DNA of 64,000 bases from a virus. This document shows positions 18,461-27,956 of this stretch, piece by piece. The notes beneath the pieces were generated by a model. The model saw nothing but the letters and a program-made list of their open reading frames with translations, was not told where the DNA came from and did no database searches. Position 1 is the stretch's first letter. Each line of letters opens with the position of its first letter. A program made the translations under genes and the position numbers. Location of the stretch: positions 1-64,000 of IMG/VR virus record IMGVR_UViG_3300021478_000019. One strand, given 5' to 3'.

Positions 18461-18982
18461 GTGCTAAGCCCACGCCAGTTCGGAGATCTTGCGACCGAGG
18501 CCGGCAAGACCTTCTCCGGGGCGACTGTCGATGTTGGCACCGGCCAGCGCAAGACATCGGGGTGGGCCGTGGCCCTGAAGGGCGCTGAACACGTCGAGCC
18601 GAAGGCGACGTTCGGTCCTGAGTCCATCCAGCGGTATGTCGGGCGGCATTCTGAGGCTCTGAGCCAGCCGGCTCATCACCTGGGACTGTGGCATGAGGAG
18701 AAGAGCGACCCGATATACCACGATGTCTCAGTGCTGCACCCCAATACCTACGCTGGGGGGGTGCGGGCCATCGCAGGCGGCTACCACCACGAACAGCAGG
18801 CTATCTACAACCTCGACCGCGGTGAGACTGTCACCATGCTGCCCGTCACCCGCAGACAGGACCGGGAAACTCGGCGGTCGATACGAGGACTGAGGAAGCA
18901 ACGGCCTGAGCCGGAAGGCAAGGTCTCGGACATGCCTACGAGCCAGCTGGGCGCGGCTCTTCGGAATCGTCGCTCTGTCTAG
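18461..18982 (+). CDS. LSPRQF-tagged protein, possible SAM-lyase-like fold
   Basis: TAGCCT-N7-GTG start gives MLSPRQF; pattern GLW...Y.DVS...A...G...EQQAIY. Confidence 0.6.
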   Translation: MLSPRQFGDLATEAGKTFSGATVDVGTGQRKTSGWAVALKGAEHVEPKATFGPESIQRYVGRHSEALSQPAHHLGLWHEEKSDPIYHDVSVLHPNTYAGGVRAIAGGYHHEQQAIYNLDRGETVTMLPVTRRQDRETRRSIRGLRKQRPEPEGKVSDMPTSQLGAALRNRRSV

Positions 18983-19815
18983 CTCGCATCCGGGCTCCGA
19001 TCTCCTGAGCGTAGAGATCGAGGTCGTTGTCCGCGGTGCGTGGCTCGGCCCGCCGCTCCTCCCACAGGGCGTGAGCCTTATCGCCTAGCTCCTTGAAACG
19101 CTGTTGATCCAGCTGCCTGCTTTTTATGGCTCTACGATCGTAGAGCCACCAGTATTCTCGCTGCTCGTCTGGGGGGAGGCAGCCGATGATGTTGAGGAAC
19201 GATCCGTAGGCGGGGTAGTGGTAAACCCCGTTCTCGTCTGGCCTGTTGCTCATTTTTTCACCTCTGGTTCCACCTGGGTGCCGGTCACGGTGACGGTGCC
19301 CATGGTTGGGTGCGGGGTATACACGTACTCGGTGCCCAGGTGGGCGATGCCCTCGATGCGGGCCTGGCTGTCCTTGGGGCGTTTGCCGAAGTGGGCGTCG
19401 AGCATCTCCCCCCGGACCCCGGAGTGGTCCGAGTAGGAGAGGAAGTCCTGCGTCACCCCGTCTGAGAACAGCACCCGGTATCTCTGGATGGGGAAGGGCA
19501 GGCCGACGCACTCCTGGGCCGGCTGGGCCCGTACCGGGGCCGGGGTGACCTTGGCACGGGCCAGGCGGCGTCCGGTGGGCGGGCCATCGGTCGTCACCAC
19601 CCGGTCTCGTCCATCTCCTCGCCGGTGAGGGGGATGGCCTCTCGGAGGACGTTGCCCTCCGAGTCCACCACCGGGCCCATGAACGTCCAGCCCCCGGCGT
19701 TGACTTCCTCCAGGGTCACGCCGGGCAGCAGATGCATGACACCGTCGTAGATCCACCCCTGTCCCCTGATGCGACCGGCCTGCTCGGTGATGTTGTAGTC
19801 CCGTTCGTCACTCAT
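18936..19815 (-). CDS. Three coupled small hypothetical ORFs (19815-19594, ~19597-19250, ~19253-18936)
   Basis: ATGA/GTGA overlaps; codon usage. Confidence 0.5.
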
Positions 19816-20116
19816 CCCAGATCATCTTCCTGATGGTGGTGGTGATGCCTCGCCGGTCCAGCACCTGGTGCAGATGCTGGTGGCTCTCAAAGCCGGTGGC
19901 CCTGGCAGCCTGCAGGATGCTGACCCCCTCAAGGACCAGTTCGCAGGCGACCTGGTCCCGTAGCTCAGTGTCGGGGGTCTTGGACATGGGTACCACCGCG
20001 CACGCCTGGGAGCAGAACAGCGTGGGCGGCTTGCTGTACCGCCCGTAGGCCACCAGGCCCCCGCAGCAGCGGCATCGGATCTCGTTGAGGTCACTAGGCG
20101 GCGGCACCGGCGACAT
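19808..20116 (-). CDS. Zn finger plus HTH DNA-binding protein
   Basis: CRCCG...FCSQAC, then GVSILQAARATG...L..VL.RRGI. Confidence 0.65.
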   Translation of the reverse strand: MSPVPPPSDLNEIRCRCCGGLVAYGRYSKPPTLFCSQACAVVPMSKTPDTELRDQVACELVLEGVSILQAARATGFESHQHLHQVLDRRGITTTIRKMIWDE

Positions 20117-20321
20117 CCTTCTTGGCCTTGGTGATGACGGCGATGACGTCATCGATGGCTGACTCGGGGAAGGTGATGCCGCTCATACAGTCGCCGGTCG
20201 GCACCATATAGGTACCGACTTGCAACACCGACCCGGCCTGGGTGGTGCATCTGGTCACCCGGACCTCTCGGTAGTCGGCCAGCTTCACTCGGGCCAGAAT
20301 CTTCTCTTGCTTCAATGGCAT
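20094..20321 (-). CDS. Possible PC4-like ssDNA-binding protein
   Basis: EVRV...QVG.Y..PTG...GITFP...DDVI pattern. Confidence 0.45.
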   Translation of the reverse strand: MPLKQEKILARVKLADYREVRVTRCTTQAGSVLQVGTYMVPTGDCMSGITFPESAIDDVIAVITKAKKDVAGAAA

Positions 20322-20333
20322 GTGGTTTCCTTT

Positions 20334-25920: not shown

Positions 25921-26436
25921 ATGAGTGTCTGCCTGGTGACCGTGGAGGGGGTGCTGGGTGAACACAGCACGCTGCACGGGTTCCACCCCATCGTCGAGGG
26001 GGTGCGCCTGGTCCGGGCCATGCACTCTGAGTACCAAATCATGTTCTCGACCACCCAGAGCGGCTACGAGGCCGTCGACTACTGGCTGCGGATCAACGGC
26101 ATGATGCGGCCCACCTTCTACGAGGATCTGCTTTACCGGACCCGGCCCTGGACCGACCTGACCGACGTCGAGCTTCAGACTGAGCATGCCCATCACCTGC
26201 GGACCACGGGGGCCGACGTGGGCATGGTGGTGTCAGCGGACCCCGAGACCATCCTGCGGATCACCCGGCTGGGGTTCCCCTCGGTCTTCTTCGTCAACCC
26301 GACCTACCGCTGGGCCGAGTACCGGCCTGACCATAAGCGGCTGCCGCGGCCCTGGCAGGAAATCGACGACGAGATGGTGCGCCAGCGCGAACTGAAGGCC
26401 ACCGACCCACGCCTGAACGAGATGGAGGAAGCATGA
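25921..26436 (+). CDS. Degenerate HAD-fold protein
   Basis: VTVEGVL in place of DxDGxL; WL..NG; VVSADP. Confidence 0.55.
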   Translation: MSVCLVTVEGVLGEHSTLHGFHPIVEGVRLVRAMHSEYQIMFSTTQSGYEAVDYWLRINGMMRPTFYEDLLYRTRPWTDLTDVELQTEHAHHLRTTGADVGMVVSADPETILRITRLGFPSVFFVNPTYRWAEYRPDHKRLPRPWQEIDDEMVRQRELKATDPRLNEMEEA

Positions 26437-26669
26437 GCGCCTCTGATGGGCTGAGCAAGCGGCAGTTCTACACCGAGTCCAACCTGCTAGAGCAGGGCAA
26501 CACCGACGAGTTGGACGTCCGCACCAGGGGCCTCCAGAACATGACCAGCAACGTCTTCAAGCCCAGCTTCTCCTCCGACTACACCACGGTGCGCTCGACG
26601 CCTTCGCCTGGTGGTGATAGCCAGGCCAGCCAGGGCAACGAGGCCGATGTCGACGACGAGGGGGAGTAG
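26433..26669 (+). CDS. LSKRQF-tagged acidic protein
   Basis: MSASDGLSKRQF; ATGA overlap. Confidence 0.65.
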   Translation: MSASDGLSKRQFYTESNLLEQGNTDELDVRTRGLQNMTSNVFKPSFSSDYTTVRSTPSPGGDSQASQGNEADVDDEGE

Positions 26670-27131
26670 GTGAGCCATCGCGCCCTTTCCCCTCAGCAGT
26701 TCGATATCTCCCAGGAGATGGGCCTGCATCCCTCCATCGGAGGTGAGGGCTCACCGGACGTGATTAGGGGTGGAGCGGCCCGCCATGTCATGAATCAGGC
26801 AGGTATTCGCCAGACGTCTCCGACCGGCCAGAAGACCTACGGCGGGCATGTGGAGCATGTCGATGCTCCCCACATCGCTGGAGTTACTGAGGGCTATGGG
26901 CAGAGCCGGGGCTACCCGCACGGGGAGGTTTGGACCTCGCAGGCTCATCTGCATCTGCCCACCCTGGCCAGGTACGCCCAGGGGGACGTGCCCAAGTTGG
27001 ACCCGGACTACGACATCGACGAGAGCGGTGGGCCCCACGTTCCTTACGAGCCCGAGACCTACCACCATGGTGGCAAGGAGTGGCTGGCCGAGGGCCATCA
27101 CCGCACCATTGCTAGGAGGCTGGCGGGATGA
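26670..27131 (+). CDS. LSPQQF-tagged protein with ParB/Srx-like C-terminus
   Basis: MSHRALSPQQF; TSQ..L...L.RY; WLAEGHHR.IARRL. Confidence 0.7.
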   Translation: MSHRALSPQQFDISQEMGLHPSIGGEGSPDVIRGGAARHVMNQAGIRQTSPTGQKTYGGHVEHVDAPHIAGVTEGYGQSRGYPHGEVWTSQAHLHLPTLARYAQGDVPKLDPDYDIDESGGPHVPYEPETYHHGGKEWLAEGHHRTIARRLAG

Positions 27132-27550
27132 GCCACCGCGCCCTGAGCCCGGAGCAGTTCAAGGTCTTCCCGGCTACCCCCAAGGAGATGGGCGGCGTGC
27201 CGCACCACACCGTCGAGGCGTGGGCCCCGGAGCATGCCAGCACGGAGTGGGCCCAGGCCCGCCCGGAGGAGAGGAACCAGTACGCCGGCTCGTCGGTAGA
27301 TCCCGGCCACCGGCCTCTGGGTTCCATCTCCTGGCACCACAAGACCGGTGAGATCCGGGGCGTCTACGTCGAGAAGGAACACCAGCGCCAGGGCATCGCT
27401 ACCGCCCTGTTGGGTCATGCTCGCCAGGCCGCAGCTGAGACCCGAGGGGTGACGCCGCCCCGCCACTCTGCTGATCGCACCGCGTCCGGGGAAGCCTGGG
27501 CCCGCTCGACGGGCGATCGCCTACCGAAGCGGAGACCCCGTGAGCCGTGA
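27128..27550 (+). CDS. LSPEQF-tagged GNAT acetyltransferase
   Basis: MSHRALSPEQF; IRGVYV..EHQRQGIATALL acetyl-CoA motif; T.SG.AW. Confidence 0.85.
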   Translation: MSHRALSPEQFKVFPATPKEMGGVPHHTVEAWAPEHASTEWAQARPEERNQYAGSSVDPGHRPLGSISWHHKTGEIRGVYVEKEHQRQGIATALLGHARQAAAETRGVTPPRHSADRTASGEAWARSTGDRLPKRRPREP

Positions 27551-27956
27551 AGCGTTAAACGATAACCAGTTCTCCTGTCCGACCTGCGGCCAATCCCACG
27601 GTCCCGATGAACCGGTCCTGGGTAACACCGGGTGCCCATCCTGCGGGCGTACCATCCCGTTCCTGGCTCGGTCACGGGGTGGCCGGATCGAGACCGGCAC
27701 CAGGCAAGGTGGCACCGCCCACTGGATGACGCCAGAGACCACCGTGGTGCGGAAGGAAGGTAAGGTCCACCGCGCTCTTTCCTATGGCCCTGACCGAACG
27801 ACGTACATCCATGGTGAGGGTCGCAGTGGACAGGAGGCCATCAACAACGTGATGAGCCAGATGGCTGACCAGCAGGGGAAGAAGTGGTGGCCGACGAGTC
27901 CGGGGTTCCACAAGCAGATGGACGATGCCCGTCGAGACTTGCTGGGGTTGGAATGA
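27540..27956 (+). CDS. LNDNQF-tagged Zn-ribbon protein
   Basis: MSREALNDNQF; CPTC...CPSC. Confidence 0.65.
   Translation: MSREALNDNQFSCPTCGQSHGPDEPVLGNTGCPSCGRTIPFLARSRGGRIETGTRQGGTAHWMTPETTVVRKEGKVHRALSYGPDRTTYIHGEGRSGQEAINNVMSQMADQQGKKWWPTSPGFHKQMDDARRDLLGLE

Follow-up and report, generated by a model that had tools for sequence, protein, structure and literature searches.

One N-terminal peptide on many unrelated small proteins: a candidate cargo-loading tag in a lineage of contractile-tailed phages

Six small genes lie between positions 18,461 and 27,956 of the stretch of DNA that we call the window, the opening 64 kb of IMG/VR virus record IMGVR_UViG_3300021478_000019, which is complete at 117,510 bp and has 64% G+C. 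They encode proteins with very different bodies and one way of beginning: a peptide of about 11 residues, whose canonical form we read as M-S-x-x-[A/V]-L-[S/N]-x-x-Q-F. We argue from the sequences that this peptide is a modular address tag, strictly N-terminal, which recurs on unlike cargo among the relatives of the source phage. For what, then, would it be an address, and what would read it? Reasoning by analogy with phages that carry proteins in their particles, we propose that the tag may load its bearers into the virion, an answer to which we give a little short of an even chance.

Below, G000 is the whole genome that holds the window; G001, G002, G006, G009 and G011, together with the L-numbered loci, are records of relatives.

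The peptide, its position and its codons

An earlier note on this DNA had picked out six N-termini, and all six are present, each at the start of a gene on the plus strand. Gene D (26670..27131; 153 amino acids [aa]; GTG start) begins MSHRALSPQQF, gene E (27128..27550; 140 aa; ATG start in an ATGA overlap with the D stop) begins MSHRALSPEQF, gene F (27540..27956; 138 aa; GTG start) begins MSREALNDNQF, and gene C (26433..26669; 78 aa; ATG start) begins MSASDGLSKRQF. Gene A (18461..18982; 173 aa; GTG start), with MLSPRQF and its motif at 18464, is a short-leader form, and its start is backed by orthologues in L003 and L004 that read VLSPRQF with a stop four codons upstream. Gene B (25412..25684; 90 aa; GTG start), which had been listed as a weak member for its MSIPFQTRQF, is a true variant, one residue shorter, with orthologues that begin MSVPLSTAQF and MSIPFSEKQF. 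Directly behind F comes a gene that is context and not cargo, an untagged DpdA-like DNA transglycosylase of the queuine tRNA-ribosyltransferase family (27953..29425, plus strand; phrog_887 at 1.5e-40), whose start is most likely ATG 27953 (MSLRHLELFF, in an ATGA overlap with the F stop) and not GTG 27884. From C through D, E and F to the DpdA-like gene, stops and starts abut or overlap in one chain. That similarity ends after Q-F is true between cargo families; among 19 aligned N-termini, M1, S2, L6, Q10 and F11 are the only invariant residues.

How strict is the position? Across the six-frame translation of the 117,510-bp genome, L[SN]xxQF occurs five times, always on the plus strand and always with a start codon 1–6 codons upstream and 72–172 open codons downstream. 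One hundred dinucleotide-preserving shuffles gave a mean of 0.92 matches (maximum 3) and a mean of 0.18 (maximum 1) in N-terminal position. Because 15.3% of six-frame positions qualify as N-terminal, five of five would fall there by chance with a probability of ~8e-5, and the excess at N-termini for which the earlier note had proposed to look is there to be seen. Over the whole records of five relatives, a back-translated DNA pattern of the tag gave 21 matches, against 0 for a reversed control, and also exposed tagged genes away from the DpdA array. Two near-identical viral contigs of 53% G+C (L012, at 8686 on the minus strand, and L016, at 8507 on the plus strand) hold a 174-aa open reading frame (ORF) that begins MSIAALSLTQF and matches the same DNA pattern.

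Beyond the source phage, the tag proves to be much commoner than one window could reveal. Six IMG/VR relatives found through DpdA (62–70% identity) each have 1–7 tagged genes in the strict form L-S/N-x-x-Q-F, on different cargo and no more than 10 kb upstream of DpdA; in L006, one further tagged gene directly follows DpdA. A search with protein C retrieved 23 further metagenome loci. Over 33 sources, we counted 201 six-frame [LIVM]xxxQF matches, of which 102 pass an N-terminal filter and represent 72 distinct proteins, a few of them evident false positives (e.g., internal portal or fibre frames). The canonical 11-residue form heads 59 proteins in the source phage's relatives, on unlike cargo: position 5 is Ala in 50 and Val in 9, position 6 is Leu in 57 and Ile in 2, and position 7 is Ser in 41 and Asn in 18, counts in which the filter partly fixed positions 2, 6, 10 and 11 and left positions 5 and 7 free.

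The claim that selection favours the peptide over the DNA had been built on two genes, in which L-S-P is written CTT TCC CCT (D) and CTG AGC CCG (E). That difference is real, and the 59 canonical tags carry it much further, with TCN in 25 and AGY in 16 of the codons for Ser7, CTN in 44 and TTR in 13 of those for Leu6, and four different codons for Ala5. Because synonymous codons vary so much at positions 5–7, selection acts on the tag as a peptide. Ser2, unlike Ser7 with its two codon families, is AGC or AGT in 59 of 59 tags (e.g., window 27131–27133); this constancy points to an extra constraint at the nucleotide level, for which ATGA/GTGA start–stop overlaps may account only in part.

The peptide also outlasts large changes in base composition. 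A search with protein D among 1.84 billion representatives returned 21 relatives at E <= 1e-3, of which 20 were fetched (one 30-residue fragment was excluded), and 16 of the 20 have Q[FW] within the first 12 residues, with N-termini such as MTLSPEQF, MVALNPNQF, MLSQAQF, MVLGPQF and MPKPTGPQW; 4 of the 20 are without it. The loci found with D homologues include phage fragments of 40–46% G+C, whose tandem genes begin MAAHENMSHEQF, MAASDNLSPKQF, MSAEDNLSPKQF, MSNLSPKQF and others, so that the core is kept where the DNA is quite different. Two variants, MAASDNLSPKQF and MPATDHLNPSLF, stand at the head of genes arranged in tandem in remote branches of the lineage, whose G+C runs from 40 to 64%. For tag bearers as a whole, which range from 40 to 65% G+C, the core would be L-[S/N/G]-x-x-Q-[F/W] inside the first 13 residues.

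These bearers belong together. The closest cultured phages are those of the Streptomyces Borockvirus group (BRock, GiJojo, LuckySocke, Alone3 and pSt2308), with a capsid protein 67–68% identical and a DpdA ~31% identical to those of the source phage, and capsid proteins are 58–86% identical among G000, G001, G011, G006 and G009. The portal of BRock is 53% identical to that of G000, and the capsid-protein family numbers 3,801 homologues at E <= 1e-10. G006 has only 44% G+C, yet its capsid protein is 58–64% identical to that of G000, and we therefore have before us a single phage lineage that spans very different hosts. A tblastn search of 50,697 phage records with C, D and a low-G+C homologue of D found no match, nor did a megablast search with the tagged region.

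Perhaps the peptide addresses nothing. A constant AGY at codon 2 (59 of 59) and many ATGA overlaps, which imply some constraint on nucleotides, would suit an account in which the sequence is no more than a favourable helix start and translation-start context, spread with cassettes by recombination at a conserved start sequence. S/N-x-x-Q between L and F is a generic helix-capping pattern, and the cassettes clearly move between sites. What such an account explains poorly is a peptide core that persists in entirely different DNA (40–46% against 64% G+C), with free synonymous variation at positions 5–7, with L6, Q10 and F11 invariant over at least 13 unrelated cargo types, and with a motif that no other gene start in the genome has. 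We find it quite improbable.

Cargo, arrays and operons

What follows the tag is diverse. As had been claimed, E is a small GNAT acetyltransferase (PF00583 at 4.5e-8, 33.8 bits against a cut-off of 20.7; PF13508 at 31.1 against a cut-off of 27), and it has orthologues in G001, G011 and G006. Two ParB/Srx-like cargos had been named, and they fare differently. B does belong to the ParB/Srx superfamily (PF20188 DUF6551 at 7.6e-8, 32.6 bits against a cut-off of 26.8; ParBc_2 at 5.7e-4; a DGHHR-type motif in YYVSDGHHR) and is kept in five relatives at 47–70%, whereas D, which ends WLAEGHHR, resembles the superfamily only weakly: it has no Pfam match and no Foldseek match at E <= 0.001, and VIA-align gives weak fold matches over residues 74–153 (sulfiredoxin twice, PadC and KorB, at Z 2.2–3.6). 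In F, the tag runs directly into CPTCG...CPSCG, a zinc ribbon for which Pfam offers weak matches only (E 0.009–0.09); an F orthologue (L045:7664) begins MSREALNEEQFACPNCG. C, with its acidic tail and a conserved, apparently disordered body (isoelectric point 4.19), is the best conserved of the tagged proteins, with 27 invariant columns among seven orthologues, and marks where the variable array begins. A matches phrog_3170, of unknown function (1.3e-9; profile positions 304–418 of 433), and, in a protein atlas, only unnamed viral clusters (scores 0.86–0.87); its cargo has no Pfam match and no PDB sequence match, and a search for longer fused relatives, itself weak evidence, found none.

That unrelated proteins stand under one tag is borne out by the relatives. 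BLAST at 1e-3 sorted 38 candidate tagged ORFs from eight phages by cargo into 19 clusters; true tagged proteins are present in 13 or more of these. To the cargo of the window, the relatives add Arr-ms-like ADP-ribosyltransferases (ARTs; 1.5e-12), further GNATs (2.7e-10), a weak PARP-like match, several unknowns and acidic mini-proteins of 43–55 residues that carry the tag; 10 low-G+C cargo proteins gave one weak Pfam match only. Tagged proteins are hydrophilic and Cys-poor, with a median length of 88 aa and a range of 43–326, figures on which the many C orthologues weigh, and one consensus heads 5–11 of them per genome. Nearly all genes between C and DpdA are tagged, and the set varies among relatives; in G000 and its nearest relatives, the array is flanked by a conserved B, a 78-aa ORF, a 171-aa ORF and C, and by DpdA. 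Cargo can also change place, since that of D lies in the DpdA array in G000 and in a structural region in G001.

The neighbourhood of DpdA lends some weight to another account of the tag, in which nothing is packaged and the peptide would recruit enzymes, inside the infected cell, to one hub and one common target, either a DpdA-centred modification/replication machinery or a conserved host complex. The array lies just upstream of DpdA in six of the six relatives found through that gene, and the two are translationally coupled in G000; in the dpd systems of bacteria, DpdA has ParB-like partners, and the tag, as modelled, would resemble a short linear motif carried by a flexible extension. The linkage is not general, however, for the DpdA homologue is far from the tagged genes in G006, G009 and G011. 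Docking motifs usually work at C-terminal or internal sites too, and this one is N-terminal only; a host hub would need to be conserved across the hosts of phages of 40–65% G+C; and the clamp-binding consensus, Q-L-[S/D]-L-F, is unlike the tag. Since L-[S/N]-x-x-Q-F has its Q and hydrophobic residues in the reverse order, we rejected the sliding clamp as a partner. Tagged effectors in late structural operons, finally, would fit an early takeover poorly unless they were packaged. Cytoplasmic docking seems to us possible but doubtful.

Those late operons deserve a closer look. In the late structural operons of G001, G002 and G011, tagged genes are flanked by homologues of two G000 genes, one of 370 aa (115250-116362) and one of 167 aa (113613-114116), whose BRock homologues lie between the capsid and sheath genes. 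The insertions occupy one and the same site in the three divergent relatives (L017 4630-6677; L018 3090-6656; L050 7146-11331), and at that site G000 has instead a holin-like ORF, a 77-aa ORF and a collagen-like ORF. The block in G011 consists of four variant-tagged genes, the last of them an ART that begins MPATDHLNPSLF and whose stop overlaps the portal start (TAATG), with scaffold and capsid genes following. Enzymes of a host-modifying type, encoded among late structural genes, would make most sense if they were packaged for the next infection. Upstream sequences added little: the window has 15 copies of an extended -35 element, GACTTGCA (20217–58579, mostly 38.6–48.9 kb), against 1.9 expected, and none of these is upstream of the tagged array; a promoter consensus scan gave nothing above shuffles, and inspection of 73 upstream regions revealed no obvious late consensus. 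In L004 (9729-10004), a WhiB-like ORF (Cys-rich, ...CSHCPVRQTC...) and a two-helix membrane ORF separate the tagged array from DpdA.

Most arrays come with GNAT and ParB/Srx genes, and one may ask whether such enzymes act on the tag rather than merely bear it. The peptide would then be an enzyme recognition element, that is, a processing or modification site or a degron that times the removal of potentially toxic enzymes, read by a protease, by an N-terminal acetyltransferase (the tagged GNAT itself) or by a ParB/Srx-type kinase. Removal of Met leaves an N-terminal Ser or Ala, both common substrates of acetylation, and the ARTs among the cargo are potentially toxic. Against this, in the ORFs compared, no family of untagged enzymes accompanied the arrays from clade to clade, G009 has variant tags and no E-type GNAT, and Asn at position 7 in 18 of 59 tags means that there is no obligatory phospho-site; the co-occurrence of D and B is itself partly a matter of ascertainment, since it was the D family that led to the distant loci. 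We consider a recognition element unlikely.

The tag's predicted structure and its possible receptor

In an AlphaFold model of D (predicted local distance difference test [pLDDT] 80), residues 1–7 are coil and residues 8–16 a helix, and the first 20 residues have a pLDDT of 50–57. The tag is thus predicted as a low-confidence N-terminal extension, outside the cargo fold, with a helix directly after Ser7. Judged by its pattern, L-[S/N]-x-x-Q-F fits a helix N-cap box that includes a hydrophobic staple: the helix would be capped by Ser or Asn, with Q at N3 and with L packed against F. The outcome would be a small hydrophobic knob borne by a flexible stalk, a shape that docking motifs usually have.

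Our proposed explanation starts from that knob. On a flexible N-terminal extension, S/N-x-x-Q would cap a short helix and bring L and F side by side, and one common receptor would read the result. Any gene that acquired the tag would become a client, and for this reason the phages would keep fast-changing tandem arrays of small tagged enzymes. As receptor we propose some conserved component inside the virion while it assembles, most probably in the procapsid, and the tagged enzymes would be packaged and would enter the next host with the DNA, as T4 internal proteins and Alt do and as P1 DarB does. Virion loading is favoured by the strict N-terminal position, by the T4-like hypervariable arrays, by cargo of the kind known from polyvalent proteins and by the tagged genes in the late operons of three relatives. 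That the tag follows one lineage across hosts of very different G+C favours, in turn, a receptor that is conserved and encoded by the phage.

Which part of the particle would receive the cargo? The source phage is contractile-tailed, with sheath, tube, a tape-measure-like ORF (3339-5948) and fibre genes at 153-13,261 of the window and a baseplate also encoded. Gene A and the array lie downstream of this tail module, and one can imagine that cargo enters the tail and not the head, like the payloads of extracellular contractile injection systems (eCIS; PVC and Afp), which have N-terminal signals; in PVC, such signals take payloads into the tube (PMC11495950). In a phage, however, the tail lumen holds the tape measure protein, and PVC loading, according to the same source, requires the AAA ATPase Pvc15. 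An AAA-ATPase-like ORF (GHSGTGKS), together with an ORF of 595–656 aa, adjoins tagged arrays in three loci only (L055 1823-4774, L056 1-2667, L059 839-4429); it is not among the G000 genes that match G006, and no search was aimed at it in G000. Tail loading strikes us as hardly probable.

Loading into the head remains the reading that we prefer, and the head module (genome 93.9–102.2 kb) offers a large terminase, an SPP1-type portal, a coiled-coil scaffold and a capsid protein of the N4-gp56 family as places to look. A complex prediction of the tag peptide with the capsid protein and two copies of the scaffold scored 0.00 against a mark of 0.32, in a run without controls, and speaks neither for nor against binding. 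The capsid protein (genome 101149-102180; L011:1149-2180) does have two tag-like segments, [VI]LRFEQF (residues 44–50) and AL[TS]ASQ[YF] (89–95), invariant in 120 of 120 close homologues, and the capsid gene of L014 is matched by the tag DNA pattern. We rejected the idea that the capsid protein mimics the tag: the whole protein is highly conserved, its model is poor (pLDDT 56) and has a strand at 91–98 where the tag would be helical, and the BRock protein is 67% identical in a phage that has no tag. The likeness is probably chance. Between the terminase and portal genes, a very basic 439-aa ORF (genome 96487-97806; L010:12487-13806) begins MADDVAGGRQF, with Q10 and F11 in the register of the tag; it has no family match and no homologue in the five genomes compared, and it may be a degenerate tagged head protein. 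An ORF of 145 aa also lies between these two genes.

Other candidates were set aside as well. An ORF that begins MTTIVGVQY, presumably an N-terminal-threonine hydrolase of HslV or proteasome-beta type, adjoins the endolysin gene near tagged genes in two low-G+C loci (L056 15274-15822; L057 6649-7194); it has no homologue in G000 and was rejected as a general partner of the tag. Tat signals and ClpX N-motifs were rejected on pattern alone.

Several observations count against virion loading, and they should be heard together. The main array of G000 and its nearest relatives is ~40 kb from the head genes and is translationally coupled to the DpdA-like gene. BRock, the cultured relative of the same lineage whose capsid protein is 67% identical to that of G000, lacks tagged ORFs as well as the cargo of D and of E, so that a conserved capsid alone does not predict the tag. 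For several of the tagged proteins, which are no more than tiny acidic peptides, it is not obvious why delivery would be needed. When ORFs around the tagged arrays of 11 sources were compared all against all, only cargo families were widely shared and no other family ran across clades; the presence or absence of 161 G000 ORFs in G001, G011, G006, G009 and BRock likewise revealed no core gene specific to tag bearers, and between them these two comparisons yield no receptor candidate. PHROGs and Pfam, run on the scanned head-module ORFs (not every ORF), found terminase, portal and capsid protein and no head protease, and neither the 59 tags nor the 19-sequence alignment has conserved residues or a cleavage motif after F11, so that a release of cargo in the manner of T4 is not evident.

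With these points weighed, we offer a fuller picture tentatively, as one against which the balance leans somewhat: a lineage of ~80–120-kb contractile-tailed phages (Borockvirus-related; 40–65% G+C) might use one helix-cap peptide as a universal cargo-loading signal, its tagged proteins being packed and injected and its arrays serving as swappable libraries of ready-made ARTs, acetyltransferases and ParB/Srx enzymes and so as the equivalent, in unlinked form, of polyvalent proteins. If this were true, injected effectors could be read from sequence alone, and the effector set of polyvalent proteins would be deliverable as separate, freely exchangeable modules. A loading signal would provide a sequence rule for the proteins injected by a large group of soil phages, which are otherwise found only by virion proteomics, and would offer a short tag for the loading of foreign proteins into actinophage particles. 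Whatever the receptor, 11 residues common to more than 12 unrelated protein families would define a new hub interaction.

Phages and particles that load proteins by an N-terminal signal

The tag had been called apparently undescribed, and we too found no account of it in the literature searched, where the strings LSPEQF, LSPQQF, LSPKQF and LSNKQF led to one unrelated plant paper.

Its closest parallel is the capsid targeting sequence of T4, which is the only conserved part of diverse internal proteins, suffices with ten residues and depends on positions 4 and 7 (PMC3012670; PMC9026906). Here too an N-terminal peptide of ~10 residues is the sole conserved part of otherwise unrelated small proteins. 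The loci are alike as well: the tagged genes form hypervariable tandem arrays, different from one related phage to the next, with conserved flanks (B, g25921, C and DpdA) and a varying set between C and DpdA. The tag sequence and the phage lineage are different. T4 proteins with the targeting sequence enter the scaffolding core and undergo cleavage by gp21, the head protease, whereas in our case neither a head protease nor a cleavage motif was seen in the scanned ORFs and tags; the T4 proteins are small and basic, whereas the cargo here is mostly enzymes.

In P1, the N-terminal 30 residues of DarB suffice for packaging, with critical residues near positions 6–10, and this signal takes an anti-restriction protein, and a reporter, into a myovirus capsid (PMC9024508). 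The N-terminal location is shared with our tag. DarB is a protein of 250 kDa, in contrast to cargo of 43–326 aa, 5–11 of which per genome stand under one consensus; the P1 Dar proteins apparently share none at their N-termini.

The repertoire of ART, GNAT and ParB/Srx domains, often encoded beside virion genes, is that of the polyvalent proteins of Iyer, Burroughs, Anand, de Souza and Aravind (2017), who consider proteins with ART, GNAT and DdrB-like ParB domains likely to travel inside the capsid and give T4 Alt and P1 DdrB as packaged cases (PMC5512222). Delivery of such effectors along with the DNA is predicted or known. A polyvalent protein joins two to fifteen effector domains in one giant polypeptide, whereas here each small, single-domain protein has its own tag; the tagged arrays can be read, by analogy, as an unlinked version of the same strategy.

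Finally, there are the eCIS payloads of PVC and Afp, in which N-terminal signals load unrelated payloads into a contractile particle resembling a phage tail. Unlike the present tag, those signals are longer, work together with the AAA ATPase Pvc15 and fill the lumen of the tube in a particle that has no DNA; no Pvc15-like AAA ATPase was seen in G000, where no search was aimed at one. From the T4, P1, polyvalent and eCIS systems alike, then, the tag described here differs in its sequence, in its lineage, in having no evident protease step and in its service to separate small enzymes.

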